Origin: Candidatus Altimarinota bacterium
GTDB lineage: Bacteria; Patescibacteriota; Gracilibacteria; BD1-5; UBA2023
DNA: 64,000 nt
Reading direction: 5' to 3'
Assembly: GCA_031375155.1 (NCBI GenBank)
Contig: JANMHM010000012.1
Span: forward strand, 2,343-66,342
A model generated the notes under the pieces. It was not told where the DNA came from and did no database searches. It saw only the letters and a program-made list of their open reading frames with translations. Positions 7,401-50,436 of this stretch are shown piece by piece. How positions within the stretch are numbered: the stretch's first letter is position 1; the number at the start of each line of letters is the position of its first letter. Both the position numbers and the translations under genes were made by a program.

Positions 7401-7405
7401 TCCTT

Positions 7406-8867: not shown

Positions 8868-8870
8868 TTA

Positions 8871-8975: not shown

Positions 8976-8980
8976 TTTCT

Positions 8981-9307
8981 ATGAAAGCTTCCGTACAAAA
9001 TGTCCGCATCTCACCTAAAAAACTCAATGTGATTGCGTTCATTATCAGAAACATGACAGCAAAAGATGCTCTCGATACTCTCCGATTTATGCCAAAAAAA
9101 GGAGCTGATATCATGCTAAAGGTCCTCTCAAGTGCTGTGGCAAATGCGACTCATAATGATAGTCAAGTTCTCACTGATCTGACGATCTCTTCTGTGAGTG
9201 TCACACAGGGTATCGTCTATAAGCGTATCAATCCAGTTTCTCGAGGACGCGCTCACCGTATCCTCAAGCGTACATCTCATGTCGATCTCTCCCTTTCTGT
9301 AAAATAA
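8981..9307 (+). CDS. rplV: 50S ribosomal protein L22
   Basis: Intact ORF in the conserved position. Confidence 0.9.
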   Translation: MKASVQNVRISPKKLNVIAFIIRNMTAKDALDTLRFMPKKGADIMLKVLSSAVANATHNDSQVLTDLTISSVSVTQGIVYKRINPVSRGRAHRILKRTSHVDLSLSVK

Positions 9308-9326
9308 TTTTTTCTCTTACTCACCT

Positions 9327-9965
9327 ATGTGACACAAAGTCTCACCTCTTGCATTCCGCATCGGATACATCAAAACATGGCGTACTACAGGGTACTATGA
9401 CCGTAATGATTATGCTCTCCATACAGCTCAAGATGTAGCTATCCGTGCACTGGTCATGAAGCACTTCAAGAATCTTCCTCTTGCAAATGTATTTATGAAT
9501 CATAACGGAAATAGTCTCCTTTCTATTATCCTCTTTACTTCTCGTCCTGCGGTGATCCTCGGAACGAATGATGATAATATAAATGGTCTCAAGGATATCC
9601 TCGCAAAGAGATTTCCTGGATATACATTTTCTCTCGAAGTGAAGGAAGTGAAAAAACCGGAGCTCTCAGCTCAGATAGTAGCAGACTCTATCGCTCGTCA
9701 GATCGAGAAAAAGATGCCATATCGTCGAGTGATCAAAAATGCTATCGCAAAAACTATGGAGAAGGGAGGTCTCGGTATCAAAGTAAAACTCGGAGGTCGA
9801 CTCAATGGAGCAGAAATCGCTCGTCGTGAAACCTATAAAGATGGAAGCATCCCATCTCAGACTATCCGGGCTGACGTAGAATTTGCTTACGAAAGAGCAG
9901 AAACTCCATCAGGTACGATCGGACTCAAGGTCTGGATCTATAAAGGTGATGTTTTCAAAAAATAA
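9327..9965 (+). CDS. rpsC: 30S ribosomal protein S3
   Basis: ATG 9327, TGA as codon 2 (MGHKVSPLAFRIGY). Same frame as ORF 9456-9965. Confidence 0.95.
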
Positions 9966-10010
9966 ACTTGCAATTCCGAATTTTTATCTATAATCTTAAC
10001 GATTCTTCTC

Positions 10011-10427
10011 ATGCTACAACCGAGCAGAACAAAATATCGAAAGGCGCAACGTGGAGTCATCAAGGGTCTTGCCACTCGTGGTTCAGACATATCCTTTGGT
10101 GAATTTGCCCTTAAGACAACCGAATCTGGTTACATTACATCTCGACAGATCGAGAGTGCCCGCAAGGCTATCGTCCGCTTTCTCAAGAAGGGAGGACAAC
10201 TCTGGATCCGTATATTTCCTGATAAACCATATACAACTCACGCTGCAGAAGCTCCAATGGGTGGTGGTAAAGGAAGTGTCGAAATGTATCGTGCCCCTGT
10301 AAAACCTGGACGTATTCTCTTTGAAATGGGAGATATCTCTCCAGAAATTGCTAGGGAAGCATTTACGATTGCATCGCATAAGCTTCCGGTAAAAACAAAG
10401 ATTCTCATGTCAAAGAACGAATTCTAA
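10011..10427 (+). CDS. rplP: 50S ribosomal protein L16
   Basis: Intact ORF starting [11 protein letters not shown]. Confidence 0.95.
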
Positions 10428-10461
10428 TATTCATCTGCGACCATCATTACACTCTCTCTTT

Positions 10462-10671
10462 ATGGCAAAAGCAAAAAAAACATCTAAGACTCCAAAAGAC
10501 TTCAAATCTCTCGATAGAGCCGAGCTTACTACAGAGCTTATGGCTTCGAGAAAAGAACTCTTCTCGCTCCGTATGAAGCACTCACTCGGTGAGCTCAAGC
10601 AGCCTCATCTTGTCCGTGTCGCACGCCGAAGTGTGGCTCAGATTTCTACGGCTCTCAGTTCCTCAATCTAA
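10462..10671 (+). CDS. rpmC: 50S ribosomal protein L29
   Basis: Intact 69-aa ORF in the conserved position. Confidence 0.85.
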
Positions 10672-10691
10672 TTTCTTTACTTCAATTTCCT

Positions 10692-10940
10692 ATGCGTACT
10701 AAGACCGGTGTCGTCACAAGTACTAAGATGCAGAAAACTATCGTCGTCACTGTCGATACGTATAAAACGCATCCAAAGTATCAAAAGCGCTACAAATCTT
10801 CTGTAAAATTTTATGCTCATGATGAGAATGGACTCGCAAAACTCGGTGACACTGTCACAGTGAGTGAGACTCGTCCTCTCTCTCGTCTTAAGCGCTGGTC
10901 TCTTATAGAAGATTCTATCGTCTCTACCTCTAGTAAATAA
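10692..10940 (+). CDS. rpsQ: 30S ribosomal protein S17
   Basis: Intact 82-aa ORF in the conserved position. Confidence 0.9.
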
Positions 10941-10952
10941 TTTTCTCACTTT

Positions 10953-11321
10953 ATGATTCAGGCAGAAAGCAGACTCGTAGTCGTGGATAATACAGGTGCT
11001 AAAGAAGTACTCTGTATCAAAGTCCTCAAAGGATCAAAGCGTCGTTATGCGAGCGTCGGTGATATCATCGTCGTCTCTGTGAAGCGTGCACTTCCTAATG
11101 GAAACATCAAAAAGAAAGCCGTATGTAAGGCCGTCATAGTCCGTGTTTCGAAAGAAGTACGTCGTGACGATGGTACTTATGTACGATCAGATGATAATGC
11201 ATGTGTGATTATCGACGATAAGCTCGAACCAAAAGGAACTCGTATTTTTGGACCTGTCTTCCGCGAACTCAAGGCGAGAGGATACCAGAAGATCGTGTCT
11301 CTTGCTCCAGAAGTTGTATAA
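10953..11321 (+). CDS. rplN: 50S ribosomal protein L14
   Basis: Intact ORF starting [18 protein letters not shown]. Confidence 0.95.
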
Positions 11322-11362
11322 TTTGCCCATAAAAAGTCTCTAAAAATATTTCTATTCACTCT

Positions 11363-11665
11363 ATGAAAATCCACAAAGATGATCAGGTCATCGTCATTTC
11401 CGGAAAAGATAAAGGAAAAAAAGCAAAAGTCCTTCGAGCTATTCCTGATAGTAGTACTCTCGTCGTCGAAGGTGTAGGAGTCGTCACTCGTCACATGAAG
11501 CGTCAGGGATCTACTCCTGGACAGAAAGTCACTTTTGAAAAACCGATCAGTGCTTCCAACGTCATGCTTCTCGATCCAAAATCAGGAGAGCCCACTCGTA
11601 TCGGATACAAGATCGAAAATGGAAAAAAAGTCCGATTTGCAAAAAAATCAGGAACGACTCTCTAA
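11363..11665 (+). CDS. rplX: 50S ribosomal protein L24
   Basis: Intact ORF starting MKIHKDDQVIVISGKDKGK. Confidence 0.9.
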   Translation: MKIHKDDQVIVISGKDKGKKAKVLRAIPDSSTLVVEGVGVVTRHMKRQGSTPGQKVTFEKPISASNVMLLDPKSGEPTRIGYKIENGKKVRFAKKSGTTL

Positions 11666-11717
11666 AAAAACACTCATCGTATTATTTACTCTATAGTACA
11701 CCCTTAATCCTCTTCTC

Positions 11718-12257
11718 ATGACTTTCAAAGAACAATACATCAAAAAAATCCTTCCTGAACTTGCAAAAGAACTGGGTATAGAAAATGCTATGCAGATTCC
11801 TCATATCGAAAAAATCGTTCTCAATATGGGTATCGGTACCTATGTGGCTGCTGGGAATAAAGATTTCTCTAGTCTTCGCAATGATCTCGCACTTATCTCA
11901 GGACAACTTCCACGTATTAATCATGCACGTATCGCAATCTCGAACTTCAAACTTCGCGAAGGTATGCCTGTCGGAATGATGGTCACTCTCCGCGGTGAGC
12001 GTATGTTTGCTTTTCTCGAAAAACTTATCGCTATCGTCCTCCCTCGTGTCCGTGACTTTCGTGGTGTTTCTGCTCGTGGTTTTGACCAAGAGGGGAACTT
12101 CAATTTTGGAATCAGAGAACATACGATCTTCCCAGAAGTTCCTCAGCTTGACGTCGTCAAGTCACACGGACTTCAGGTGACGATCAAAATGAAATCATGA
12201 ACTCCAGCTCACTCGAAGGCTCTTCTGGAAAAAATGAGTTTCCCCTTCAGTAAATAA
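11718..12257 (+). CDS. rplE: 50S ribosomal protein L5
   Basis: ORF 11718-12200 continues through TGA to TAA 12255. Confidence 0.95.
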
Positions 12258-12286
12258 TCTTCCCTCTAAAACCTAAATTCCTCTCT

Positions 12287-12511
12287 ATGGCTCGAACAGC
12301 TCTCGTCAATAAATGTAGAAATGCTCAAAATGCAGCATCTCGCGCTCATGACCTCGGTAAAGAACCAAAATTCTCTACTCGACTCTACCACCGTTGCTCA
12401 CACTGTGGTCGATCGAACGGATATATCGGAAAATTCGATCTTTGTCGAATCTGTGTCCGCGAGAAGGCAAATGCCTGAGAACTTATGGGTGTTCGTAAGT
12501 CAAGCTGGTAA
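12287..12511 (+). CDS. rpsN: 30S ribosomal protein S14 (zinc-binding type)
   Basis: CSHCGR...CRIC. Continues through TGA to ...[11 protein letters not shown], with TAA at 12509. Confidence 0.9.
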
Positions 12512-12558
12512 TAGTCGAACCTGGATATACTTTTTACTTCCGTTTTCTCTCTCTTTTT

Positions 12559-12945
12559 ATGATCATCGATCCTATCGCAGATCTTCTCACTCGTATCAGA
12601 AATGGCTACCTTGCTCGTCTTTCGAGTATCGAGGCACCATATTCAAAAATCAAGGCTGAAATCCTCCGAATTCTCAAGAAGAATGGGCATATTGTAGAGT
12701 TTACTCTTTCTGAGGAGACTCATACATTTGTGATCACACTTCATGATGTTCGTAAGACAAAATATGTTCCATCATTTCGTCGAATCTCTCGACCAGGACA
12801 GCGTATCTACGTTCGCTCTACAGAGATCAAAAAATCACGAAATGGAGTCGGTATATTTATCCTCTCTACCCCCAAAGGAATCGTCACAGGATATGAGGCA
12901 CACTCTCTTGGAGTAGGCGGAGAACTTCTCTGTGAGGTGTTCTAG
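12559..12945 (+). CDS. rpsH: 30S ribosomal protein S8
   Basis: Intact ORF starting MIIDPIADLLTRIRNG. Confidence 0.95.
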   Translation: MIIDPIADLLTRIRNGYLARLSSIEAPYSKIKAEILRILKKNGHIVEFTLSEETHTFVITLHDVRKTKYVPSFRRISRPGQRIYVRSTEIKKSRNGVGIFILSTPKGIVTGYEAHSLGVGGELLCEVF

Positions 12946-12980
12946 AATGATAAACCTTAAAAACTTTTAACTCAAATTTT

Positions 12981-13532
12981 ATGTCTCGAATCGGAAAACA
13001 ACCCGTCAAACTTCCTGCAGGAGTTTCTGTAGAGATCACTGCTACGGAAATACAGATCAAAGGATCTAAGGGGAATCTCATGTTTAATATCCTCGAATGA
13101 GTAGCTGTAACGCAAGAAGGAGAAACTCTTCTCGTATCAGTACAAAATCCTGAGAATAAACAACAGCGTGCCTACTGGGGCCTTACTCGTGCCATGCTTC
13201 AAAATATGGTCGTAGGAGTTTCAGATGGATATACGAAGAGTCTCGAAATCATCGGAGTAGGGTATAAATTCGATGTGAAAGGTCCACGAAAGATTGAGCT
13301 TGCTATAGGATTTTCCCATAAAGTAAATGTCGATGCTCCTGAAGGTATCACTATCGAGGCAGATAAGGAAGAAAAAAATAAAATCCACCTTCGTTCTCAT
13401 GATAAGCAACTTCTCGGATACTTCGCTGCTTATATCCGTTCTTTGAAAAAACCAGAACCGTATAAAGGAAAAGGTATTAGATACGTCGGTGAATATGTCC
13501 GCAGAAAGGCAGGTAAGACTGCTGGTAAATAA
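12981..13532 (+). CDS. rplF: 50S ribosomal protein L6
   Basis: ATG 12981 (MSRIGKQPVKLPAGV), one TGA, same frame as ORF 13194-13532. Confidence 0.95.
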
Positions 13533-13568
13533 TTATAGATTCTATTATAAATTATAAAATTACGTTTT

Positions 13569-13910
13569 ATGTTACAGAAAGTCCAAAATCGTCTTCGCCG
13601 AGCCAATCGTGTACGTGCTCGTATCGAATGAACTGCTTCGAAGCCTCGCCTCAGTGTATTTCGTAGTAATACGCATATCACAGCCCAGGCTATCGATGAT
13701 AGTACAGGAGCTACTCTCTGCAGTGCTCATGATATCGCAGCGAAAAAAGGCACAAAATCGGAACGCGCACGTGAAGTCTGAGCTACTATCGCAAAGACTA
13801 TGCTCGAAAAAGGGATCACGGCATGTATATTCGACCGAGGTGGATATCTCTATCACGGACGAGTCAAGGCTCTTGCTGAAGGTGCTCGTGAAGCTGGACT
13901 CACTTTCTAA
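13569..13910 (+). CDS. rplR: 50S ribosomal protein L18
   Basis: ATG 13569 to TAA 13908 with 2 TGA. Motifs [15 protein letters not shown] and [24 protein letters not shown]. No matching L18 ORF appears in the standard-code track. Confidence 0.9.
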
Positions 13911-13946
13911 TACGATCTATTCTCTTCTCTTAATAACTCTCTTTCT

Positions 13947-14747
13947 ATGTCAGATACCCAGAACCAAACACTTCCTGAAAACCCAGAAACTTCTGTAGTA
14001 GAGACTCCTGTCGACACTCCTGTAGTCGCTGAAAAATCATCTTCAGAACGTCCATCTCGTGATGGAGATCGAAAAGATCGTGGTGGTGATCGTCCTCGTG
14101 GACCTCGCCGTGATGGTATGCGTGAAGAGGAAAAAGAATTTAAAGAAGAGATGCTCGAGATCGCTCGTGTGACACGTGTCACGGCTGGAGGTCGTCAGAT
14201 CCGATTCCGTGCGTCTATCGTCATCGGTGATGGAAAAGGTCGTATCGGACTCGGTGTCGGAAAGGCAGGAGAAGTCCAGATGGCTATAGAGAAGGCGATC
14301 CGTGATGCGAAGAAAAACCTCATTACCTTCCAGATCGTGAACGGTACTATCGCTCATGAAGTGACTGTAGAGTATAAGGCATCAAGTCTCCATATCCACC
14401 CAGCTCATCCAGGTACTGGTATCATCGCTGGAGGTGCCGTACGAAAAATATTCTCCGTCTCAGGTATCAAGGACATCATCGCCAAACAGCATGGAGCTCC
14501 CAATAAGATCACCAATGCTCGTGTCGCCATGAAGGCACTCGCATCTCTGAAACCTACAGGACTTATCATGAAATTCGCTTCGAAGAATGAAGGAAAGGAA
14601 GGAGGAGAAAAAATAGCCAAAACTCCAGAAGCAAAAAAAGAAAAAGTCACTGTAGCAAAAAAGGCTCCAGAAGCAAAAAAATCTACTCCAGTAAAAGCAG
14701 AAAAACCAGTAGCTAAGAAGACTCCAGCGAAAGCTAAGGCAGCATAA
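13947..14747 (+). CDS. rpsE: 30S ribosomal protein S5 with long N- and C-terminal extensions
   Basis: 266-aa ORF. The S5 core is flanked by an Arg/Asp-rich N-extension and a Lys/Ala/Pro-rich C-tail. Confidence 0.9.
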   Translation: MSDTQNQTLPENPETSVVETPVDTPVVAEKSSSERPSRDGDRKDRGGDRPRGPRRDGMREEEKEFKEEMLEIARVTRVTAGGRQIRFRASIVIGDGKGRIGLGVGKAGEVQMAIEKAIRDAKKNLITFQIVNGTIAHEVTVEYKASSLHIHPAHPGTGIIAGGAVRKIFSVSGIKDIIAKQHGAPNKITNARVAMKALASLKPTGLIMKFASKNEGKEGGEKIAKTPEAKKEKVTVAKKAPEAKKSTPVKAEKPVAKKTPAKAKAA

Positions 14748-23245: not shown

Positions 23246-23397
23246 ACATTTCCCGACTTTTCTATACTATCTCCTCACATTTTCGTATGAGTTCTTACGA
23301 GCTCTCGTATTTCTTATTGTCGAAATACGAGATTTTCGCGAAGTGAGAAAGCCAAGAACGTTATGACTTCGAAGCCCTCATATATAACCCCTTTTCC

Positions 23398-25854
23398 ATG
23401 ACTCCTCCAGCAAATCAAGATGACTACTACGCTCAGGTAAAAGCCGCAGGTGCATCTGGTACCGATGATAAAAAACCACTCAAACTCAAGCTCAAGGCTG
23501 TCGTGAAAAAACCGATAGAAGAAGAAATTCCACAAAAAGAGGAAGATATTTCCCCGCGTGAAGTCGTACAAGAGGAACGTCCGAAAGCACGTCTCGTGGA
23601 GCGTGAGCATGCGAGCTCTGGACTCATGCGAAGCGTGATGAAAGGAGGTGATGATAAAAAATGAGACCAGAGAGATAGTCGAGAGAGAAGTACATTTCCG
23701 AAGATATCTTTCGCGAAAGCAGAACACAAGGTAAAAATCCTCGAAAATCGTCCTGTCATGCAAATTCCGGATGAAGTCCCGAAGAGGCGCACTGACGGAA
23801 CTGCTCCAGTCGGTGCAGGAGCAAAACGTCTTCGCGATGACTCGAAGCCAATGTTCCAGAGAAATATCGCCTTTGCAACACCGCAGAAAGATGGTACCGC
23901 GAAAAAATGAGGAAAATGAAAGTGAGGAAAGGACTATGTCATGGAAGATGGAAAGAGAAAAAGTGTGAAGACGATCGGAGGAGTGGCAGACGATGGATCA
24001 TTTCGCCGATCAGGAAAACTCGGAAAGAAAAAGTGAGAAAAAAATATCGAAGATCTCAAACAAATTCTCGTCGACCGTACGGGACAAGAGGTCTCTGTCG
24101 GTGATGTGATATCCGTGAAAGAGTTCTCAGATAAGATCGGTATACCAGCGGTGAAGGTGATCGGAGAGCTCATGAAAAACGGAGTCCTCGTCAATCTCAA
24201 TGCTCCTATCGACTATGATACGTGTTTCCTTATCGGAGAAGCATTTGGTATCAAGATCACCAAAGAAATCTCAGAAAATGCATCAGTATCAGACCTCATG
24301 GATGGGAACATCGACGAGATGATAAAAGAAGAAGATAGCTCCCGCCTCGTCTCTCGCTCACCGATCATCTCCGTCATGGGACACGTCGACCATGGAAAGA
24401 CCTCGATCCTCGACTACATCCGGAAGGCATCGGTCGTATCAGGAGAAGCATGAGGTATCACTCAGAAGATCGGAGCGTATCAGGTCGAGAAAAATGGAGG
24501 GAAGATCACCTTTCTCGATACTCCAGGACATGAGGCCTTCACTATCATGCGAGCTCGCGGAGCCAAACTCACAGATATTGCTGTCATCGTCATCGCCGCA
24601 GACGAGGGGATGAAACCACAGACCATAGAGTCGATCAACCACGCGAAAGCTGCAGAAGTCCCGATGATCATCGCGATCAATAAGATGGACAAGCCAGGAG
24701 CTAATATCGACCTCATCAAATGACAAATGGCAGAGCAAGGACTCCAGCCAGAAGATTGGGGAGGCAATACCGTCGTCGTACCTGTCTCAGCGCATACAGG
24801 ACTCGGTATGGACTCTCTCCTCGAGATGATCCTCCTCCAGGCTGAGATGCTCGAACTGCGAGCCAATCCTGACCGTGGTGCTATCGCAACGGTCGTCGAA
24901 GCGCATCTCGATCAGAAGCTCGGATCGGTCGCTACTATCCTAATCAACACGGGAACTATTCGCAAAACAGACAACATCGTCTGTGCAGGAGCATATGGAA
25001 AAGTCCGTACACTGAAAGACTACAAGGGGAAAAATATCGACTCAGCAGGTCCAGGAGTACCAGTGCAGATCACGGGTCTCTCTGATGTCGTCCAGGGTGG
25101 AGATATCCTCCAGGTCCTCTCGACTCCAGAGCTCGCGACGACTCGTGCGAAGGAGTACTCTCTCGCGAAAAATAAAAAATCGATCCACGCCTTCGAATGA
25201 GCCTCTCTCGGTATGCTCATGAGTCGACTGAAGTCTGGAGCCCTCAAACAGCTCAAGATCGTCCTCAAGACGGATACCGGAGGATCACTCGAAGCGCTCA
25301 AGGCTTCTCTCACGAAGCTCTCGACTCCTGAGACACAAGTCGTGTTTATCCACTCGGCAGTCGGAGATGTGAACCAGTCTGATGTCATGATGGCAGGGAC
25401 TTCACAGGCGCTCCTCATCGCGTACAATGTCGGAGTCAATCCTGCTGCGAAGTCAGCACTGTCTCAGTCGAAAATAGAATTTATCGATAAAAAAGTCATC
25501 TATCACGTCATCGAGAAAGTCGAATCTATCATCACCGGTATGATCGACATCCGCTACGAAGACCTCGAGCTCGGTGCGTCTCTCGTGAAAGCGATCTTCT
25601 TCACTGGCAAGAACAACTCTATGATGATCGTCGGTATGGGAGTCACTTCAGGAAAGATCGAGAACCGAGCAAAAGTCCGTGTCATCCGCGCAGGGTCCAA
25701 GGTCGGAAGTGGTGAAGTCGTGAATCTGAAGATGGGTCCACTCGATGTGAACGAAGTCGAAGAAGGAAATGACTGTGGTATCAACTTCAAGGGAGACGTG
25801 CAGATCATGGAAGGTGATGTGCTCGAGTTCTATAAGATGGTACAGAGGAAATAG
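23398..25854 (+). CDS. infB: Translation initiation factor IF-2
   Basis: Fragments 23398, 24106, 24727 and 25213 are all in one frame joined by TGA. Motifs [25 protein letters not shown] and NKMD. Confidence 0.95.
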
Positions 25855-25879: not shown

Positions 25880-27202
25880 ATGACTAAATATTTCATTATT
25901 TTCATTACATGTTTTTTTCTATTTGCTTGCTCAAATAAGGATATTCTTATAGATCAAGATTCTCATACTTCCTCATGAAAAGAGATGAATATATCTAGTA
26001 CGTGAACTATATCAGGAGAAATTTTGATAAAACGTATTATCCCAGTGGGAACAGATATTGAATATGATAACATATTTGAGCAGTTTGATGATGTAGCACA
26101 AAAATACCAAGATGCTCGTGAGAGACAGGATTATACGTTTTCGAGACAAAAACAGGATGCAGATATTATAGAAAAAAATAAAAATACCTTTATACGACTT
26201 TTTCAAGAAAATAAACTGCCTATTCTACATACTCTAAAAATAGGAGATAAAAAAGTATTTATATCAGCGCCATATGGTAATCATCCAGTAGAAATGTATC
26301 CAGAATGATATGTTTCTTGTTGATTTTACTTTAGTCCGTGAGGATCTTCCACGCATAACATCTGTATGGCATTTACAGATTCAATCGATACAAAACTCAC
26401 TACAGAAATGGTGTTTAGTAGTAGTAACGTAAATTATAATATAATTGCTACGGGCTCTTTCTTTATAAACCATTACTCAGATGGTGATATGTGTGCGAGC
26501 TGAGGTAATTACGCATTATTCGATGAAAATCTAGTAACCATAAGAAACTTAAATTATGTTAACAGTTCATGTAATTTTGTGAGGACATCCTTTTCAAAAA
26601 ATGGATATACTATAGAGTTTCTCGATTCTCACGCAGAAAATCCTTTCGCGACCAGCTCATGAGTCTATATTCCTCGCGCTTCCCATATGAGGATACTCAG
26701 TGGTAGTTTATTCACGGAAAGAGTACTCTATGAGTATGTCTCTCATAGAGTTTGATTCACTTTTGATCCTATAGAGAATACTTTGAATGGTGACACTTTT
26801 GATTTTACTTTTTGATGAAAAAACTTTTCCCTTACTAGAAAAGATATAGAATCTTTCGCGCCATCTTTTATTACCGATGCAAACAAACTTCGTTATCAAT
26901 TTACTCTTTCGGGAGAAGAATGAATTGATGAGGAAATATATGGTCGCTTAATGTGATCTATAACAACCCCAGAAAATAATCGTTATTATGATATTATTTC
27001 GAATATTTCTGTACTATCCTGCCAAAAGAACTCATCACAATACGACGATGAGCCTTATACGCTCTTAACTTATACATGAGGTGAAGTATTTCGATATAAA
27101 ATTGATACAAAATTTTGAAATAAGTGTCCTATTCCATATAATTTTTCTTTTAAAAGTAGTTCGGGAAATACATTTAATACAGCAGTAAAAATAGTCAGAT
27201 AA
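25880..27202 (+). CDS. Hypothetical lipoprotein (440 aa)
   Basis: Lipobox MTKYFIIFITCFFLFAC. I checked frame 2 line by line to TAA 27200. About 16 in-frame TGA. Confidence 0.65.
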
Positions 27203-27317
27203 TTATAGACAGATAAACTTGCATGAAATATGTAATTTATGATATAAAAAGTTTGATTTCTCGGAAAATCTGATATAATAATCTCGTCTTCCAAGATAAA
27301 GGAAATATATCTCCTTT

Positions 27318-27350
27318 GAAAAATCCCTCTGTCACGAGGGATTTTTCTTT
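27318..27350. terminator. Rho-independent terminator
   Basis: GAAAAATCCCTC-TGTCAC-GAGGGATTTTTCTTT. Confidence 0.6.
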
Positions 27351-27560
27351 GTTGATCTTAGCGTTTCCGCTTCACAACTCGCTCATAGATACCAGATATT
27401 TCTATCCGTATCAAGCGATGCTTCCAGTAGGGAAGTTCCAAGATAAACTTCTTCATAAGAAGAAATGGTTAGGAGATATATCTCCTTGCTCCTTCTGGAA
27501 GCAAGGAGCTTCGAAATTATATATTTTTCTTCGAAAAATCAACTTTACCAAAATACATCA

Positions 27561-27607
27561 TTCTGACCACAAAATTTGCTCACACTTTTCCCTTCAGGAA
27601 GCCATAG
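27561..27607 (+). repeat. 47-bp direct repeat, copy 1
   Basis: TTCTGACCACAAAATTTGCTCACACTTTTCCCTTCAGGAAGCCATAG, identical to 31718-31764. Confidence 0.9.
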
Positions 27608-27626
27608 CATACAAGTATCTAGTGTT

Positions 27627-27669
27627 CCTGTCATTTCGAGCGGAGATGATAAGTGAAGTCGAGAAATCC
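27627..27669. repeat. Hairpin repeat unit CCTGTCATTTCGAG...GTCGAGAAATCC
   Basis: Same termini family as the copies at 173, 18549 and 55708. Confidence 0.6.
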
Positions 27670-27731
27670 TTCTCTCAAAAAACTCCTCTTTCCTCGGTTT
27701 ATTATTTTAACTGCTCGAGTCAATAGTTAGT

Positions 27732-28991
27732 TTAGGGTGCGTTTTTTATCACGAGCTCTATGGCAGATATATAATCTTCTATAAAACTGTTTTCAAATAA
27801 GTCTAAAGATTGTGCCTCAGACACATAAATCTCTATAACTCCTATAGGATTTTCAGCTCTACCAAGAGGTATAATCATCACGCCATATATATTGTGATGA
27901 GACTTGATAGATGAAAATTGTTCGAATTCACCATGTTTTTCAGGCTCAACTATTTTGATACTTTTCCCTTGGTTGATAGTATATTCTGTAGCGCTTCCAC
28001 TATATTTTTTCTTTGTGCCAGTAGGGAGTATTTGTATTTTTCCCATAGCACCATCGAGAGTCATATTTCATTTCGTATCGCACTTCCAGAGCTGTACGAG
28101 TTCACTATCTGAGATAAAAAGGATCGATCGAAGAATGAAGTCATAAAAATTCATACGAGACCAGTACTGCCCTCGTCAGAACTTTATAATATCCTGTATA
28201 TAGTCAAGCTGTCTTTGTAGCAGTCCTATCTGAGTATAGGCATCGCGTATCTTCACACAGTGCTTATCAATTTGCTCTTCGATCTTGATCTGTCTAGTGA
28301 TATCTCGACCGATGAATAGGTATTCATGATCCTCCTCGTCTGTACTCATAGATGTGATAGCTCCAGAAATCATGAGAGCATTCCCAGTCTTATCTACAGC
28401 ATGAAATCGTATCTGACTGAAGTTATCTATGGGATGTGTGAAATTTTCGAGAGATTCTTCTGGAAATAGCAAGCTAATACCAGAAGCCTCTAGTTCAGAG
28501 AGTTTATATCAGAAGATTGTTTTTGCACCCTTATTCCATGAGGTTATTTTTCCATTTTGGGAATAAGAAAAAATACAATCACTTGCCATACCGACAGCTT
28601 GTGATATGGCTTTTTCTTTTTTCTGGAGTTTTTTATATTCCCTGAGATCTGTCATAATCCCTACAGTTCACCCTCCTGGTATAGGTGACCCGCTTAGAAG
28701 TACAGGTATCTTCTTTCTTGACTTACTAAGTAATATGCCCTCATAGTTCGATCTGACTCATTGCTTTCTTTTCGTGGTGTTTGTATTTCGTACTGTTGTA
28801 GCACTCTCTTTATCCCAGAAATCATATGACTCTCTTCCTATCATCTCATCGAGAGTATACTCCATAATTTCACAGAATTTCGGATTTGCAAAGATGGTTC
28901 GTTCGTGCTCATCTCATACCCACACTGCTTCATTCATCGTATCGATGAGATCACGGAAAAAATGTTCAGGAACTTTTTCTAAATGAGGCAT
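27732..28991 (-). CDS. PAS-PAS-GAF sensor protein with no recognisable output domain
   Basis: ATG (reverse complement) at 28989-28991 to TAA at 27732, one frame through about 7 TGA. PAS-like LIDTMNEAVWVGDEHERTIFANPKFCEIMEYTLDEMIG and AVGMASDCIFSYSQNGKITSWNKGAKTIFGY. GAF-like C-terminus. Confidence 0.65.
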
Positions 28992-29048
28992 AATATAATG
29001 ATATGTGAAGATACTCTATGGAAAAATGCGAAGAAGTAAAAAGTTTTC

Positions 29049-31517
29049 TTACCCTCATTTCATTCGGAGAGTTTCTGGCTTCCTCCGCCCCTTTCATCAT
29101 ACTTGTGAGCGTTCGAGGGGAGCCTCAAGTATAGCCATCGCACTCTTAAGAGGAAGCAATTTTCCATCATGGGCCTTTATGCTACGATCAACAAGCCTCT
29201 GGATATGTGCTGTGATCTTGGCTATATCTGGAGGAGACTGGGCATTTTTTACAGAGAGATGGACGAGTATTCGTACGATCATACTCGCACTTCAGAGCGA
29301 CCCATGGATACTCTCATCTATGATCTCATGTACTCTACTATCGAAGTTCTCTGGACCTATCTGGTCACGTACATACTGTCGAGCTTGATTGCGTCGATGG
29401 TACTGGTATCATGCCAGTACACCATTTCTTGTAGTTACAGTATTACGTTGCTTATTGATATGAGCTTTCTTAGAGTCTTTCTCTATCTCGGTGAGAGAGT
29501 ATCATGGTGTGAGCTCTGCACGCAAAAAATCGGCTACACGGAGATCTCTCTCTTCATCATGAGATTTCTTATAGATGACTATCGATATGACTTCATATTC
29601 GAGATTGCATACTATCCAGAGCTGAAATGATGAGTCCTCTAGTAACTCGAGCTTATCTGAGTCCAGGCGAAGCACTCGAGTATATGACTGACGTATGCCA
29701 TCACTGATGTAGACTCATCAAGCTTTAAGTGTTTTTGCGGTATCGGAGAGTCACTGGTAAAAATCAGCATCATCTTGATGTGAGGTGGATCGTTTTGAAA
29801 CGATCATATCGAAGCTATCATTTTTGTATATTTGCGGTATATCACGGAAATCTCACCAGGTAAAATGAAAAGGATAACCTCCATAAGGAAGAAGTTCTGT
29901 AATATTTACATTTCCGAAAGCACGCACAAACTCATTACTATTCAAGATTATTGCATCTGCACCTTGATTCTCCCTTAAGAGTGCATCCATAAAATCTCTA
30001 TCAGCATCTCACTCGAATTCACCATGTGTATCTATACGGAGAGGTTTTGTATTGAGACTCATCTTTTTACACGCCGAGTTGATCTTTCTTACGATATCCA
30101 TGATCGTGGGTGGATCGAGAGACATATTCGTCGGGCGAACGTCGATACTCCCATACTGGTTGGCATTATCGTGGCGATACTTCTGACGAAGCGCATCTAT
30201 GATATGATATGCTATATACTCTCGCAGATAGTTTTTTCACTTTATTTTCGGTATTATTTCTCCTATTTTTACTGAAAATACCCGTACCATATCTATGTAG
30301 AGATTATCACCGATTCATTCTACGTGGCACTGAGGAAAAGTTTCTCAGGCAAGGGCTGATTGGTTATTCCCAGATCATTTTACGAGTATTTTTATAGAAT
30401 CTGTACTTTCAGTATGATTATCAAGAAAACTTTGTAGACCATTCGGAATAAAACCGAGCGATTTATCGAGCTTCCCACTTCATACAGACCAGTCTGGAGC
30501 CAGGTTTGGCGTGAGAAATCCAGCATCATTGAGCGCCTGTATACATGTGGATGTCAGATTTCTATTATCAATATTTTCGAGCCATTTCTGATACTGAGCT
30601 GGCGTATCTATATTATCTTGTTGAAGTTTCATATACCACTCTAGAAACCCTACAGTATTCATGATATCCATATGCGTGAGAACTTGTCATTGCTCTCTTT
30701 TTGTACGTTTCCTCGGGAGTGTTCTCGCCTTTCGAAACGGTATAGCATCCTCTTCACTCTTGTCGATTCTTGGATTCCTGCTTTTATGTAGATCACCAGC
30801 TACATATACTCTCTCTCAATCCGGTGTAGAGATTTCCTGACCAGAAAATCCGAGCGTCATATGGAGGAATGCTTTATGAGTATCTTTTCCTATGGGGAAG
30901 GCTATCTCGTTACCATGCCTCATGTGTTGTGTTCATCCTGGAGTATGTAGTGATGTCGGAACGAAGATGCACATACCTGGCAATTCTGCAGCTCCACTAT
31001 CATCCCCCGTGATACTTACTACTCCTGTTTGCGCCTTGATTCCAGAAAAATCTAGGTGATATCATTTGTACTTCTGGTTTATTGTTTCTATCTGTGCCGT
31101 TATAAGAGAGTCAGTCGTGAGGCCATAGTCTACCATACTTGTCGCATTGACGCATGTCACTGTATACTGTATCTTTGGATTATTCTCTAACGATACTCGA
31201 ACGAGAGTATTGGTAAACATATCTTTTAGCTCGTCATCAGTCATGCTGCATATTTCTAGTGGTCGATACTGTTTACCAACATTCTTATGTAACATCAGAG
31301 TTATTACTGCAAGTGCGTACTCTTCAGGAATCACCATTCCTATATAGGGCGTGCCAGTATTATTTTTCCACTTCTTGCTTCGCAGGCGCTCTACCCGGAG
31401 TGGAAGTGGTTTATTTATGATTGCAAGAAGTTGTCATTCAGATTGATACTTCTGAGAGAACGTCTCTATTTTGCTTTCGACTACTTGTCTTACTTGAGTA
31501 CGGCGTTCGGACAACAT
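29049..31517 (-). CDS. Large orphan protein (about 822 aa) with a C-terminal Rossmann/SAM-methyltransferase-like region
   Basis: I traced a single minus frame codon by codon from ATG 31515-31517 (alternative 31569-31571) to TAA at 29049, with many TGA. It links ORFs 31062-31337, 30480-30671 and 29097-29282. ...FDMIVSKRSTSH...LKAGGVYISD is methyltransferase-like. Confidence 0.6.
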
Positions 31518-31717
31518 ACGTAAATATTTTTGTGCTCACGAAGAAAGAGATAGTGACTGCAGTGGTCACATTGCTTGTGGTTCAGGACGTGCAGAAGACG
31601 ATGATAATGACACTTAAAAATATTTATAAGAGAGAATATCAGTATATATTACATTTAAATTTTATTTGTCAATATTATTTTCACACTCTTCCGAGAAAGA
31701 CGTACAGAAAGCCACAC

Positions 31718-31880: not shown

Positions 31881-32159
31881 ATGCCGAAAGACGACAAGAT
31901 CGAAGTTGAGGGAAAAGTACTAAAAGCCCTCCCATGAGCCATTTTTGAAGTAGAGCTCCCTGAAGCTTTCTCAAATATGGTGATACGTGCGTATGTCGGT
32001 GGAAAAATGCAGAAAAATAGGATCCGTCTCATCCCCTGAGATACTGTCACTGTCGAGCTCACTCCGTATGATCTTACCCGTGGTCGTATCACATTCCGCA
32101 AGCCAAATGCGAATGCCCCAGTGAGAGTCCCAGGAACCAATAGCAACAATCGTCGATAA
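31881..32159 (+). CDS. infA: Translation initiation factor IF-1 with a C-terminal extension
   Basis: MPKDDKIEVEGKVLKALPGAIFEVEL...RGRITFR, with 2 TGA. About 20 extra C-terminal residues. Not in the standard-code track. Confidence 0.9.
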
Positions 32160-32184
32160 TTCTTTCCTCTAAATACTTACTTCT

Positions 32185-32298
32185 ATGAAAGTCCGTCCAT
32201 CTGTCAAAAAAATCTGTGAAAAGTGTACTGTTATACGCCGTAAAGGTGTAGTACGAGTGATCTGCCAAGAACCAAAACATAAACAACGCCAAGGGTAA
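32185..32298 (+). CDS. rpmJ: 50S ribosomal protein L36
   Basis: [37 protein letters not shown]. Confidence 0.9.
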
Positions 32299-38581: not shown

Positions 38582-41074
38582 ATGTCTAAGTATTCGAAAT
38601 TCACTCCTAAAAATCATCAGAAACTCATCTCTGATCTCGAAAAAACTACGACCGAAGAAGAAGTAAAACTCTACTTTTCGAAATTTTTCGATGTGAAGAT
38701 AAATACCTGAGATCGTCATGATCTCTATACGAGAGAAGCGCTTTTTGAATTCAAGTGGGATAAAAATTTCGAAAAAATAGCTGAGCGCTCAAAAATCCTT
38801 GCTCAAGCTCTCTACTATATCCGTGAGATTAAGTATTCTACAGGAGATATATCGTCGGATAAGACGATACCACCTCACATCGTCCTCATCGACCGTAATG
38901 AAGCTATCATCGAGATTACAGCAAATTGGAAGACGTTCTATGATGATTCAAAGTATGACTGGACGCGTACACCTTCGAGTCCAGATCCTCAACTTGTCGT
39001 CGATATTTCCCGCGATAATACGATCGTGACAGCACACATCTATGATCTTATAGAAATAGAGGATTTCCGTATATTCACTGAGAAGCTCGATGATATCTAT
39101 GATCCCCAGATACGACTTGATCTCGATAATACTGATAAGAAACTCATTACCGAAGAGAATTTTGAATCCGTCTATTTCTACTGGAAAGACCAGATATTCG
39201 GAGATCGAAAGACTCATACCAAACTCCCGAATCTTTTCCTCGCGGATATCCAGGAAGGGAAAGCTATGCTCAGTCGTGAGACGGGGGATCTCTACTTCAA
39301 CCTTGGCAATACGAAGAGTGAAGTCATAAATATCACTCCAAGTGACTATGAATACTTCTGGTCACTCTATGCTCGTGTCCGCAACACGGTAACTATTAAG
39401 GGCATTATCGCAAAGATCGACCGACTCTCCGAAGACAATATCCGTCGTCGAGAAGGAGAGTTCTTCACCCCGATCCGATTCGCCACACGGTGACTTCACT
39501 ATCTCGCAGAAGTACTCTGAACTGACTGGCACAAGGAATACAAAATCTGGGATATGGCAGCAGGAACAGGGAATCTGGAACTCAATATCCCCGCAGAATC
39601 TTATCATAATCTCTATCTCTCGACCCTTCATCATGAAGAAGTAGATTATCTGGAGAGGATATTCCATGGAGCGAACTGCTTCCAGTATGACTACTTGAAT
39701 GATGACGTCGATCTCCTCTTCCGTCCTGAGAATCAAGAAAGTCTCATGAGTGATAAATGGAAACTCCCACAGAAGCTCCGAGATGATCTCGCGAATCCCG
39801 CGAATAAGTGGGTCGTGCTGATCAATCCACCATTTGCTACGAGTCAAGAAGCGGGTTCAACCAGTATGAGTAAGGAATGAGTCAGCGATACCCGAGTACG
39901 AAAATATATGCATGATCTCGACCTTGGAGAAGTCTCGCGAGAACTTTTCGTCCAATTCATCTTCCGTATCCAGAAAGAGATTCCCAAGGCACATCTTGGA
40001 CTATTTTCGAAAATTAAATACCTGAATGCTACAAATGATGAAAAGTTTCGAAGTAAAATTTTCGAGTTTGCATTTCAAAAATGATTTATTTTCTCGTCAG
40101 AAAACTTTAGTTGAACAAGGGGTAAATTTCCTGTTTGATTTCTCGTATGGAATTTAGGTATCCAAAGTAATTTACATAGTCAAAAGGTTTGCATAGATAT
40201 ATTTAATAATTCAGTTCAAAAAATTGGCTATAAGAAGATACAAACGACACTCAAATCTTGATTTTTAAGTACATGGATTGAGAGACCAAAAAATACGAAG
40301 CTATTCCCACCAATCAAATCTGCTATAAATTTTTGATTTGAAAATAAAGATGTCCGAGATCGTATTTCAGAAAACTATATCGGTTCTCTCATGTGTCTTT
40401 GAAATGATGTACTTTCGCAGAACGCTGTAGCAGTTTTATCAGCTCCATATGCAAGTGCTTGAGCACATTCAATAGAACAAAATATTTTTGAAAAGAGTAT
40501 GATCGTGCATGCGGTTCGTCGTATCCCAAAAGCGACTTGGATTAATGATCGAGATCAGTTCCTCCAACCAAATCGAGAGCTCTCTGATGAATTTATTTCT
40601 GATTGTGTGGTATGGTCACTCTTTGCAGACTCAAATCAGACGAGCTCTATGCGAGATGTGGAATACAAGTGAGAGATATATCAGATCGTGAATCAGTTTT
40701 TCCCATTTTCGAAGCGTGAGGTAGAGGAGTGGGATTGTCCGAATCCAGATATATTTCTCGAAAACTCGGGAGATAGGTATATTGCAGAGTGGCTCAGATG
40801 AACGACTCTTTCACCTGAATCAAGTGCTCTATTGAATGCAGGAAGAGAGATTTATAAAGTATTTTTCCGAGAGTGGACACACCTCGATCGACATAGCTGG
40901 AAGATCTCGAACTGGGATGCAGGGTGGTATCAGATCCGCAATGCCCTGAAGGAAAAATACGGTATGGATGAGATGAAGATACTGAAAGACGCGCACAGGA
41001 AACTCAGAGAGAAACTCCTCCCGCAGATATATGAGTATGGATTTTTGCCAGAGGAGATGGTGGAAAATAGATAA
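38582..41074 (+). CDS. Fused Type IIG/IIL-like restriction-modification enzyme (nuclease + N6-adenine methyltransferase + target-recognition region), 830 aa
   Basis: One frame through about 16 TGA. N-terminal PD-(D/E)xK-like HDLYTREALFEFK. FFTP, motif I DMAAGTGN and motif IV NPPF at 39554-39880. Confidence 0.6.
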
Positions 41075-41095
41075 AATATCGTTATAATAATCTCA

Positions 41096-42718
41096 ATGCT
41101 TACCGATCCACTTATATTTCTCGATACAATCCTCTGAAAGCCAGAAAATGAGCTTGTGGAATTTAAGCTTGCTGAGAGATGATTTAGTGAGAGAAAACTC
41201 TGGGATTACTTCTCTGCACTCTCAAATGAAGCAAATCTTCATAACAAAGAATCAGCATATTTCATACTCGGCATAGATCAGAAATCTCATCTCCCTGTTG
41301 ATACTACAGCATGGTCGGGAAAGAATGCTCTCAGAGATCTAAAAAATCAAACGCATAAAGATCTCGGCATAGGATTTAGAGAAATTTATGAGCTTAGAAA
41401 AGATAAAAAAAGGATTCTGATATTCGAAATTCCCGCTTGCCCACACTGAAATCCGGTGGCATCGAATGGATTCTATTATGCACGAGCCTGAGAGAGTCTT
41501 GTTGCATTAGACCTGAGAAAACTCGATGAAATACGAGGACAGAAAAATACTGATTGGTCAGCACTTCCATGCGTATGAAGTAGTGTCGATGATTTAGATG
41601 AAGAGGCGATTAGATTTATCAGGTGATTACTTTCCAGAGAGTATTTTGATGCCACATGGACTACAGATTCTATAGAAAAAATATTGAATCGCTTATCCCT
41701 TATGAGTAAGGAATGAGTACTCAATAATACTGCAGTTTTATTTTTATGAAAACATGAAAGCGCTATCAAATACTTACATACAGATATTTGTAAGATTACA
41801 TGGAGATATCAGGATATCAAAAATAATATTGAAGAGCGACTACATGGTCCATTATATCCCCCATTTATACTGGCGATACCAATCATTATCCAATCTATAA
41901 ATCGGTTTAATGTTACTATTGGCGACTTATCCTTGTTTCGCGAAGATATTCGCCAGTATGATGAAAAATGAATAGAGGAAATGGTGGTCAATTCATTAGC
42001 ACATAGAGACTGGGAAATACCTATGTGGAATGAAATTATACAAACGCCAGATCAATTAGAAATTAGAAATCCCGGAAAATTCCGAGCTCAACTTGATAGT
42101 GTGCTGCTCAAAAACTATGTAAGAGAATATGCATATCCCAACTTATGTGAATTTCTTACAAAAATAAAACTTATGGAGCGTGAGCGTCGAGGATTAGAAA
42201 AAGTATATAATGCTCAATTGAGAAAATGACTTCCAATTGGTAATGATTTCCTTCCGGAAAGGACGACTTTTATATTATCATGAAAAATAAAAAATATTGA
42301 TTTTGCAAAAGCCCTTCTGAATAGCACAGATATATCTTTAGAACAAATTATTATATTAGATAAGCTGATAATTTGACCAGCTGAATTAACGGATATCGAA
42401 TCGAGCAAGGTACATCTCTATGTAGAACAACAAAAACGAACAAACAGATATATTATTCGACGATCCTTTTTACAGGGCAATAATATGCTCGATGAACATT
42501 TCCTTGATTGATATTCATCTTTAAAAACCAAAGAACAAGTATTTCTAGATTTTGCTAAGAAAAATCAAGGAAAAATAACTCCACGAAATGGGTATATCAT
42601 CTTTCCGAATGATCCAAAATCTTCAGTAAGAGTTATTATTATGAATATGGAAAAAAATTGAGTTCTTGAAAAAATCAAAAGATGAGAATATCGAATAGTT
42701 AAAAAGAAAAAAGATTAA
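41096..42718 (+). CDS. AlbA_2 (Schlafen-like) / HATPase_c_4 / wHTH putative regulator (COG2865-like), 540 aa
   Basis: One frame through many TGA. N-terminus ...ENELVEFKLAE... and ...ESAYFILGIDQ... are AlbA_2-like. The middle ...VNSLAHRDWEIP...IRNPG is HATPase_c_4-like. Confidence 0.55.
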
Positions 42719-48783: not shown

Positions 48784-50436
48784 ATGAAACTCTCTCTCAA
48801 AAAACGAATGTGGATCCGATATGGGATCATCAGTATACTCTCAGCAATGGTAGGGTGTGGTGTATCGTACATCTTCGCGAGTATGTCAGTATCTGAAAGT
48901 ATCACTGCTATCAATAAGATCATCTCTGATAATGCTCCGACTACCGAGCCTGATAGAGCAAACTACTTCCGAGAGGTCGCTGATGGACTCGACTCAGCTG
49001 CAGCAACTCTGAAAGCTGCAGCAGTAGAAACACGGAAGTCTAGTAGTATAGTAATAGTTTCACCCCCGACCAGTGTAAGCTGACCTTGAGAATTTAGTAC
49101 CCTGTCTACCTCGATGTGAGGTGGACTAAAGAGCGCTCCTACAACATACAGTATTGAGATGAGTACGACATCCATGAGTGTAGCAACTATTACGTTTTCT
49201 GAAAATATAGTAACAAGTGAGATTTCTATAAATGGCAATAAATTTACGGTCATGGCGCCATCTGGTCAAAATGAAAAGGGTATCGGTGGAGATATAAAGA
49301 ATCAGCAGATCATAGGACTCTATACGAACCAACTTATGGTTGGACGTCTTGATATACGCACTGTACCTGTGAGTAATAGGGATGCCTATATGACTCTCTA
49401 CTGTCCTCCGACAAATCGTACTTGAATCTCCACAGTGAGTACGGGAGTATCTGGAAACAAGTATACGTATGCTATCGCTATACTAGGATGTCCAGGTGCT
49501 ACGACATCTAATCCACCACTAGTCACTCCTCCTCCCGTTCCTACTGTAGGTGGTACTCCTACCACCAGAGCAGATGGTACGCTTATCCCTACGATCACGA
49601 TCAATGGAAGGACGATCTATCCTGGACTCGGTATCTGGCAAGAGTCTTTCGCAGAGCCGATTATCAGAACGAAGAATGGTAGCAGTATCGTATTCGCAGA
49701 AGAGTATCATTATGCTGAGGCAGCAAAATGTCAGAGTACTGAAGTATCGTGAAATGACTGTGATGCAAAGCTGAATACGCTCTGTTTCTATAACTCAGGA
49801 ATATTTCGTACTCGGACATATCAAGATTATACAGGGAAGATGGTAACTGTTTCGGAAGATGAGAAAGTGAGAAAGTGTGTCAGCTATCCTGTCCTTATAG
49901 GAAAGCTCATCCAAGCAGAAACGAGTGGTGATGTCGGAGATCCATTCACGCCCTATACGTATAAGCCTGTCGTATGAGCAAGACTCGATGTGAATGCTCG
50001 AGGAATCCTCGGAACTTGGTGTGATAAAAAAAACTTTGGAAGCTCTACGCAGTATGGATATTTCGGAGTGACCTTTGCTCAGAGAAATACTCAGGGAATG
50101 ATGCCAGATGGAGTTCTCTGAAATCTTGTAAAAGATCCCTGTGCTGGAACATCAGGCTATCCTGTCATGGCATTCTTCAATATCACAGCTACATCTGGAA
50201 GTGAGTCGGTCACAGTATGATATACTGATAAGGCAAATGATCAGTATGCGAATGCGACGTACCATGAGAAGACCTATCTCTTCAAAACAAAAATCACTGA
50301 TACTACGAAAGTGCTCTCTACCAGCCTCTACTGTGATAGTGCGAAGAATCAGGTATGGGATAAAATCACGATGAAAGATGGTTCTCTCAAATATAAATAT
50401 ACAGGATATAAATGCGGAGAAGTTTTCTATAACTAA
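48784..50436 (+). CDS. Membrane-anchored, Cys-containing extracellular protein (550 aa)
   Basis: N-terminal TM segment IRYGIISILSAMVGCGVSYIF. ORFs 48784, 49159 and 49435 are in one frame joined by TGA. TAA at 50434. Confidence 0.6.

Follow-up and report, generated by a model that had tools for sequence, protein, structure and literature searches.

A PAS sensor paired with a methyltransferase-like protein family across the Gracilibacteria/Peregrinibacteria branch of the candidate phyla radiation: a putative sensor–effector cassette

CheB and PleD are response regulators with enzymatic output domains, and in the NifL–NifA pair an output-less PAS sensor controls its partner by direct binding. 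The general logic of a PAS sensor acting on an enzymatic effector is already known, as is the class I S-adenosylmethionine (SAM) methyltransferase fold. We analyzed a 64,000-nucleotide stretch (the window) of contig JANMHM010000012.1 from Candidatus Altimarinota bacterium, where two adjacent genes on the reverse strand, A and B, encode a large protein with a putative methyltransferase core and a PAS-PAS-GAF protein with no output domain. The pair resembles NifL–NifA in that B has the make-up of a cytoplasmic multi-PAS sensor without catalytic output and is encoded beside its presumed target, but the partner A is enzyme-like and not a transcription activator, and B has no homology to that system beyond the generic PAS fold (a weak NCBIfam match to TIGR02938, E 0.023). 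The likeness to two-component systems comes from four related loci (L055, L056, L057 and L061), in which a receiver is fused to the A core beside a stand-alone receiver and a histidine kinase (HisKA plus HATPase) headed by PAS1, the first PAS domain of B; by contrast, the window pair has neither kinase nor receiver, and the output domain of A is not catalogued as a response-regulator output in Pfam or NCBIfam. A sequence-only reading of this DNA had proposed an uncharacterized signalling or modification module, a proposal that our analysis supports and extends well beyond the genome of the window. What is new here is the effector family, its strict association with one type of PAS domain, and its connection, in different lineages, to either alarmone synthesis or a phosphorelay. 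On balance we lean, by a modest amount, towards reading A and B as a sensor–effector cassette conserved in the branch of the candidate phyla radiation (CPR) that comprises Gracilibacteria and Peregrinibacteria, in which the PAS1 sensor controls the A-core enzyme. A search of the available literature library found no paper describing the A family or the A–B module.

All four close homologues of A (loci L001–L004) adjoin a B orthologue, which lies downstream and co-directional in L001 and L002, and upstream and divergent in L003 and L004. A scan with the B alignment, limited to one genome per GTDB species, returned 63 loci. Their genomes are metagenome-assembled genomes labelled Peribacteria, Peregrinibacteria, Gracilibacteria, Altimarinota or Patescibacteria, except for two named simply "bacterium" and one Uhrbacteria; the closest locus belongs to "Candidatus Gracilibacteria bacterium VAR_35_metabat_406". 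Six-frame open reading frames (ORFs) of all loci were scanned with hidden Markov models (HMMs) for the A family, the B family and the alarmone synthetase (RelA_SpoT plus TGS; RSH), with the genetic code of each locus assigned by a score-based test and gene positions corrected by hand in four loci where the HMM envelope started inside the gene. An A-family gene is directly adjacent to the PAS1 gene in 50 of the 67 non-duplicate loci, in convergent (30), upstream co-directional (14), downstream co-directional (4) or divergent (2) arrangement. Co-occurrence elsewhere had been named by the sequence-only reading as a check on its proposal, and the pair does recur. Clustering of the neighbour ORFs within 8 kb recovers B in 62 loci, A in 46, RSH in 34 and a stand-alone receiver in 12, and every other neighbour family in no more than 6. 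Reciprocal look-ups from A-family members picked regardless of B found an adjacent PAS1 protein in three out of four cases: P0137 is convergent to a PAS-PAS-GAF gene and an RSH gene, P0136 to a three-PAS protein, and P0160 to a protein that consists of two PAS1 domains with 56% identity to PAS1 of the window; the P0145 look-up met a contig end and a tandem paralogue. Because the linkage survives four arrangements and a complete turnover of flanking genes, the A–PAS1 pairing is conserved in its own right and is not mere synteny. All other parts of the loci vary, and the pairing of PAS1 with the A core is the constant.

Two further observations concern the surroundings of these genes. L074 (6001–8296) carries two tandem A-family paralogues, the second cut by the contig end. 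In L005 (9416–11581) and L006 (3046–5166), which have B and RSH and no A neighbour, B is followed on the same strand by a protein of 706–721 amino acids without a Pfam match. This orphan was considered as an A-family member and rejected, having no BLAST or HMM signal (E 0.27), and it was not counted; it might be an alternative partner.

The partners of the pair differ between lineages in two main ways. In the RSH-linked type, which includes most Peribacteria loci, a RelA_SpoT+TGS gene of 350–375 codons lies immediately upstream of B (37 loci), and the RSH and B coding regions overlap in L005, L007 and L072; the A-family gene of such loci is convergent and its product usually ends in a glutamine amidotransferase (GATase) domain. 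In the kinase-linked type, PAS1 heads a HisKA+HATPase histidine kinase (L055, L058, L061, L062, L065, L068 and L070), and 12 loci have a single-domain receiver after the kinase. An adjacent A-family protein bears an N-terminal Response_reg domain in L055 (32.8 bits), L056 (45.0), L057 (47.4) and L061 (30.1), against a cut-off of 30.2, and P0160 has a weaker match of 20 bits. Since classical signalling domains, where present, put the A core at the output position of a response regulator, control would run from the sensor to A. The same direction had been proposed from the sequence of the window, and it gains support from the PAS1-kinase fusions and the four loci with a receiver-fused A core.

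The clade of the window, which uses genetic code 25, has the module reduced to an A without GATase or receiver and with a new N-terminal extension, and a B without kinase. Neither HisKA+HATPase in B nor a receiver in A was found with Pfam and NCBIfam, and the window pair is not a two-component system, although it may operate in the manner of one. Unlike the 37 loci with an alarmone synthetase upstream of the B orthologue, the window and its clade have no RSH gene at B: the RSH HMM found no match in the 64-kb window, nor next to B in L001–L004, L043, L044, L046, L049 and L054. The extension of A is no degenerate RSH either; a fused, decayed RelA/SpoT standing in for the absent neighbour was considered and rejected at an hhalign probability of 0.8%.

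Both genes can be read only with UGA as glycine. The window requires UGA as a sense codon: ORFs of at least 150 codons sum to 40,698 amino acids under table 25, as against 9,882 under table 11. UGA stands for glycine in this organism; four of the six UGA codons of B align to glycine in 37–39 of the 39 family members from outside the clade of the window, and in-frame UGA codons of A fall opposite glycine in homologues, e.g. in GEFEG, FTWGDF and LK.GG. The many UGA-Gly codons noticed earlier in both genes are real (23 in-frame UGA in A and 6 in B). ARAGORN reported zero tRNA genes in the 64 kb, hence no UGA-Gly tRNA was seen within the window. Gene A is a single open frame (29049–31613, minus strand) with candidate starts at GTG 31613, ATG 31571 (840 amino acids) and ATG 31517 (822 amino acids); the last two match the length range given by the sequence-only reading, and the ORF map agrees with its 57-bp gap and 419-residue downstream protein. 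All the peptides it quoted are present in the translations. A hairpin scan saw no terminator-like hairpin in the 57-bp spacer, and co-transcription of A and B is therefore likely. The features of the two genes, all on the minus strand, are as follows (pLDDT, predicted local distance difference test).

29049..31571, minus: gene A, 840 amino acids from ATG 31571; family HMM E 3e-91
30537..31571, minus: A residues 1–345, N-terminal extension common only to three close homologues (alignment)
30252..30536, minus: A residues 346–440, APDWSVGS (358–365), then the N-terminal half of the putative methyltransferase fold
29895..30251, minus: A residues 441–559, predicted helical insertion between strands 2 and 3 (alignment, AlphaFold2)
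29568..29894, minus: A residues 560–668, C-terminal half of the putative methyltransferase fold, strands 3–7 (pLDDT 85–95, motifs)
29052..29567, minus: A residues 669–840, predicted C-terminal three-stranded and helical domain, family-conserved (VRDQIGPENFD...H..I)
28992..29048, minus: A–B spacer, 57 bp (ORF map and hairpin scan)
27732..28991, minus: gene B, 419 amino acids, PAS-PAS-GAF, no output domain, 6 in-frame UGA
28632..28970, minus: PAS1, B residues 8–120, the most conserved part of B
28263..28631, minus: PAS2, B residues 121–243 (Pfam, NCBIfam, family profile)
27738..28247, minus: GAF, B residues 249–418 (family profile against PDB)

Searches of curated resources with A alone gave no significant match in Pfam, NCBIfam, PDB by sequence, PADLOC or Foldseek, and confident homology to a characterized family, sought by profile and structure searches, was not found. 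The description of A as an orphan stands as far as curated databases go and falls with exhaustive searching. A word-indexed search found only three homologues, at 36–37% identity, and HMMER, run exhaustively over 1.84 billion cluster representatives, returned 65 proteins below 1e-3. Leaving aside the close homologues and a few fragments, the matched proteins have ~400–1490 amino acids and share residues ~350–750 of A; both this search and the structure prediction were run on database versions with Trp at UGA. By these profile matches A is a divergent member of a large unnamed family from Peregrinibacteria and Gracilibacteria, whose members are named in their sources only as "hypothetical protein" or "GMP synthase-like glutamine amidotransferase". 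PADLOC returned no match for A, B or the family member from L007, and identity with a defence or toxin system was rejected on that ground; a viral relative of A was rejected likewise, as a Foldseek search of the viral BFVD structures with A gave nothing at or below 1e-3.

The family is recognized by an ordered set of motifs: DW.V.R; H.HKG.GNG; W...G.GD.LYF; S.EFE.D; DLN...NF..G.F..IP; RS.SH; and L.PGG....DG.R.SYTR. S.EFE.D sits in a long, variable and mostly helical insertion, and the H.HKG.GNG position is occupied by a canonical LDLGCGNG in P0143, P0156, P0159 and P0164. Among 97 members of at least 500 amino acids, RS.SH is kept in 95, DG...SY. in 91 and G.G in 84. The A protein of the window carries the family motifs in order (DW.V.R, G.GNG, G.GD.LYF, S.EFE.D, RS.SH and DG.R.SYTR), and keeps the family-invariant F, S, H, G, S and R together with the near-invariant D, W, G and D. 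By hmmalign, residues 346–440 hold strand 1 with motif I KGSGNN (398–403) and strand 2 with GIGDNLY (419–425); the insertion holds REYIAY, NQYGSI and IDTHGEFEGD (513–522); and residues 560–668 hold FTWGDFRDIP, FDMIVSKRSTSH (hallmark RS.SH) and LKAGGVYISDGIRQSYTRVLRL (hallmark DG.R.SYTR). Two earlier assignments have to be revised accordingly. IDTHGEFEGD had been quoted as a mark of the methyltransferase fold and is not its motif I; the family alignment places it in the insertion, as the family motif S.EFE.D, with KGSGNN as the real motif I. The N-terminal ~500 residues had been called unplaceable, and only residues ~1–345 are clade-specific, with the methyltransferase-like fold starting at residue ~385. 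Matches in the representatives search begin at profile position 346 or later, save for the three close homologues and a 49-residue fragment, P0152. Within the extension, residues ~176–295 are conserved in the clade and hold HKAFLHMTLGFSG and a basic FRKARTLPRKRTKREQ linker; the predicted model has low confidence there (pLDDT 23–46 at P0001 residues 190–309).

Many members of the A family carry a class I GATase domain of the GuaA type. The Pfam GATase model matches 8 of the 48 members scanned, the Cys...His-x-Glu signature is kept in at least 29 of 97, and against solved structures the family profile finds GuaA-type GATases at E 1e-7. The domain is C-terminal in most members that bear it and N-terminal in one code-25 group. 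The likeness to GuaA-type fusions does not extend to A of the window: neither it nor its three close homologues have a GATase match or motif by Pfam and motif scan, so it represents a GATase-less subtype of the family. To our knowledge, no described architecture joins a GATase to a methyltransferase fold in place of an ATP-dependent synthetase domain.

AlphaFold2 (AF2) reached a pLDDT of 44 with a 4-sequence alignment, and with a 48-sequence family alignment a pLDDT of 71.4 and a predicted template modelling score (pTM) of 0.63. In P0001 numbering, confidence is high (80–95) over ~320–830, moderate over 24–190 and low over 190–309. Strands are predicted at 407–412, 429–435, 584–586, 601–606, 629–637, 663–669 and 675–682, with motif I after strand 1, the insertion helices (442–577) between strands 2 and 3, and a small sheet and helical C-terminal domain after strand 7. 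In the model, the seven-stranded alpha/beta core (1–5, then a 6–7 hairpin) has the strand order 1-2-insertion-3-4-5-6-7, i.e. the topology of class I methyltransferases with a break between strands 2 and 3. All 50 top Foldseek matches in PDB are enzymes of the class I SAM-methyltransferase fold, the best being spermidine synthase 4yv0 (E 0.017), with 2p8j, NNMT 21jx, AS3MT 8xt7, PNMT and NTM1 7d8d also present; the rest of A outside this fold found no structural relative with Foldseek. In several A-family members the Pfam methyltransferase models match as two separate segments, model positions up to ~45 at G.GNG and positions ~57–97 at least 230 residues later.

The comparison with class I methyltransferases of the Methyltransf_11/25 type shows likeness in the G.G.G-type motif I after strand 1, the GxGD after strand 2, the seven-strand order and the Foldseek list, and the segment ..GDF..IP....FD.I.S....SH..D.......L..GG.....D of A corresponds to the latter half of the Pfam models. 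KGSGNN aligns with LDLGCGNG of the four members named above, and D422 of GIGDNLY, the strand-2 acidic residue, lines up with G.GD or G.AD in the majority of members and could contact the ribose hydroxyls. Unlike that type, A gave no significant match in any search, has Lys for the acidic residue of motif I, and belongs to a family with its own hallmarks (DW.V.R, RS.SH and DG.R.SYTR), a fold split between strands 2 and 3 by a helical insertion of ~120 to >400 residues, and extra N- and C-terminal domains that bring its members to 500–1500 amino acids. Assignment of A to the class I methyltransferase fold is well supported by motifs, predicted topology and the consistent match list, and is statistically unproven. 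Judged from these features, A most likely binds SAM and methylates a substrate.

The architecture first read for B, two PAS domains and a GAF domain without kinase, cyclase or helix-turn-helix (HTH) output, agrees with the domain searches. All Pfam and NCBIfam matches are to PAS or GAF (PAS_9 at 74.5 bits and TIGR00229 at 89.6 bits, each in 2 stretches), and none is to a kinase, cyclase, phosphodiesterase or HTH/DNA-binding domain. In the single sequence the GAF match falls short of the threshold (GAF_2, 12.8 bits; cut-off, 28.6). By contrast, a family profile of 42 members matches solved GAF domains over residues 249–418 (3p01 at E 1e-5, 3trc and 3ci6) and PAS structures over residues 8–243, and many full-length homologues carry precomputed Pfam GAF matches, which together indicate that a C-terminal GAF domain is present. 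The B family gave 160 matches below 1e-10, mostly full-length at 35–41% identity, with lengths of ~420 amino acids, or ~530–650 with extra PAS domains, and source names, where given, of Peregrinibacteria, Gracilibacteria or "Altimarinota". Mean pairwise identity within the family is 66% for PAS1, 51% for GAF and 44% for PAS2; between B of the window and distant members it is 58% for PAS1, 32% for PAS2 and 26% for GAF, the GAF being divergent in the clade of the window. PAS1, with the hallmark NEAVWVGD..ERT.FANPKFC...SY.FWD.ES...GVRS.YEG...PVLLSG.P.PGGGT.GIMTDL, is the portion of B that accompanies A-family genes regardless of output, and it is duplicated in L071. That locus (1–14302) has a receiver-fused A and a PAS1-PAS1 partner amid genes for MsrA/MsrB, a pyridine-nucleotide disulfide oxidoreductase, Crp, ferritin, Fur and a YaaA-like protein, a single-locus hint that the PAS1 sensor may respond to redox state or oxygen.

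The mechanism that we favour would work as follows. B would be a cytoplasmic sensor with the conserved PAS1 as its module-specific element, and PAS2 and GAF would add inputs or partner surfaces. A would be the effector, a large enzyme with a split class I SAM-dependent methyltransferase core and a conserved C-terminal domain, which would bind SAM and methylate its substrate. The signal would flow from PAS1 to the A core, through phosphotransfer from histidine kinase to receiver in the sister lineages; in the lineage of the window it would pass by direct protein–protein contact, as both proteins are without kinase and receiver domains. The gene structures, domain contents, family membership, linkage and fusion variants are observed; for the window, the direction of control, the A–B contact that it would imply, SAM use and methyl transfer are inferred. 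Because the alarmone synthetase gene overlaps the sensor gene in many Peribacteria, the module probably belongs to stress or growth-state signalling. A bolder version would make PAS1 and the A core a hitherto unrecognized signal-output system specific to the branch, where the PAS domain switches on a SAM-dependent enzyme, also glutamine-dependent in GATase-bearing members, that makes or modifies a signalling or regulatory molecule in parallel to (p)ppGpp synthesis by the linked RSH. We hold this version to be rather unlikely as it stands; if true, it would add a new enzymatic output class of bacterial signal transduction beside kinases, cyclases and alarmone synthetases.

Several results weigh against the sensor–effector reading. 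The Pfam Methyltransf_31/25/11 matches of A (residues 567–627) are sub-threshold, the best at 18.4 bits against a cut-off of 27; Foldseek against PDB gave no match at or below 1e-3, and the A-family profile reaches PDB methyltransferases at a marginal E of 0.12 (1wzn). Motif I is atypical, with Lys in place of the usual Asp/Glu and GNN at its end. Between the window and L001, A is 39% identical, B 77.5% and IF-2 81%; A thus diverges much faster than B and IF-2, a pattern not usually expected of an enzyme tied to one partner. The window has no kinase or receiver, and phosphorelay logic is not simply transferable to its pair. An adjacent A-family gene is lacking in 17 of the 67 PAS1 loci, at least 3 of which are cut by a contig end right after B. 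The 17 loci without an A neighbour would also fit an adjacency without functional meaning, in which unrelated A and B genes are kept together by the shared ancestry of close genomes, as would the wider synteny shared by the window and L001, with infB flanking the pair at one end and infA and rpsM at the other. This explanation is very improbable: the linkage outlasts four arrangements and complete flanking-gene turnover, it persists with PAS1 fused to different outputs, and fusions place both partners within one two-component scheme.

Fast evolution of A also favours the idea that A is a non-catalytic scaffold or a SAM-sensing adaptor, its fold kept for ligand binding or for docking with the PAS sensor. 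Motif I is degenerate in most members (H.HKG.GNG) and canonical in only 22 of 97, the receiver-fused members lose the post-I Asp (GLAN in L055 and AVAN in L061), and the proteins contain very large non-catalytic helical regions. However, the retention of RS.SH (95/97), DG.R.SYTR (91/97) and G.G (84/97) across deep divergence looks like active-site constraint, and the frequent glutaminase fusion, with Cys...His-x-Glu intact in at least 29 members, argues for chemistry; we judge an adaptor distinctly unlikely. Reversal of the direction deserves somewhat more credit, and we still doubt it. CheR methylates and CheD deamidates chemoreceptors, and A could in like manner covalently modify B, or could make a SAM- or glutamine-derived ligand of PAS1 in the manner of LuxI/LuxR, with B relaying to RSH or a kinase. 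The exceptional conservation of PAS1 (66%) while outputs vary, from GAF-only to histidine kinase, fits a fixed ligand or modifier; B already has a tightly coupled partner, the RSH gene, in 37 loci; the union of a methyltransferase fold and a GuaA-type glutaminase in many A-family members recalls CheR plus CheD; and the variable gene orientations are like those of synthase–receptor pairs. Receiver-fused A cores beside PAS1 kinases, however, put A downstream of the sensor, A of the window has no glutaminase domain, and the Pfam, NCBIfam and Foldseek searches showed no similarity to CheR or CheD.

If PAS1 does control the A core, the pair has a wider bearing on CPR biology. CPR genomes are very small and have few recognizable regulators, yet this branch still keeps a protein of 800–1500 amino acids beside one specific PAS sensor, and the pair has been wired repeatedly to alarmone synthesis or to a two-component phosphorelay. 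The A core would be a new, uncurated effector domain of bacterial signalling, without a Pfam or NCBIfam model, and the A–B pair would offer a handle on how uncultivated episymbionts sense their state. The receiver- and kinase-fused variants provide a testable system for asking whether phosphorylation switches a SAM-dependent activity, and a new kind of modification or small-molecule signal might come to light once the substrate is identified.

On the chromosome, the pair is flanked on one side by infB (23287–25854, plus strand) and a low-GC orphan of 440 amino acids, and on the other by the divergent infA-rpmJ-rpsM-rpsK-rpsD-rpoA operon. The infA C-terminus and rpmJ lie at ~32020–32295 (plus strand), between gene A and rpsM, and gene A is divergent from this ribosomal/rpoA operon. 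The 440-residue orphan (25880–27202, plus strand), between gene B and infB, is lipoprotein-like, has no Pfam match and sits in a low-GC patch (GC 0.335 at 26001–28000). The syntenic slot of L001 (12488–13960) holds an unrelated orphan of 490 amino acids in the opposite orientation relative to the PAS gene, and the slot therefore looks variable. Between the convergent 440-residue gene and gene B lies a hairpin with a perfect 12-bp stem, GAAAAATCCCTC-TGTCAC-GAGGGATTTTTC, and a T-run (27318–27347), which is probably a bidirectional terminator. Since this hairpin falls inside it, a 167-codon ORF (27223–27726, plus strand) is probably not a gene.

Elsewhere in the window, 38582–42718 (plus strand) encodes an 830-residue protein without a Pfam match, whose NPPF-type motif VVLINPPFATSQ is read as N6-adenine methylase-like, and then a 540-residue protein with Schlafen AlbA_2 and HATPase_c_4 domains. 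The GC content falls to 0.368 at 40001–42000, and the region may be a restriction-modification or defence islet. A Thr/Ser/Gly-rich protein of 1328 amino acids with an N-terminal signal-like segment (59911–63897, plus strand) and a membrane-anchored 550-residue orphan without a Pfam match (48784–50436, plus strand) may be surface proteins.

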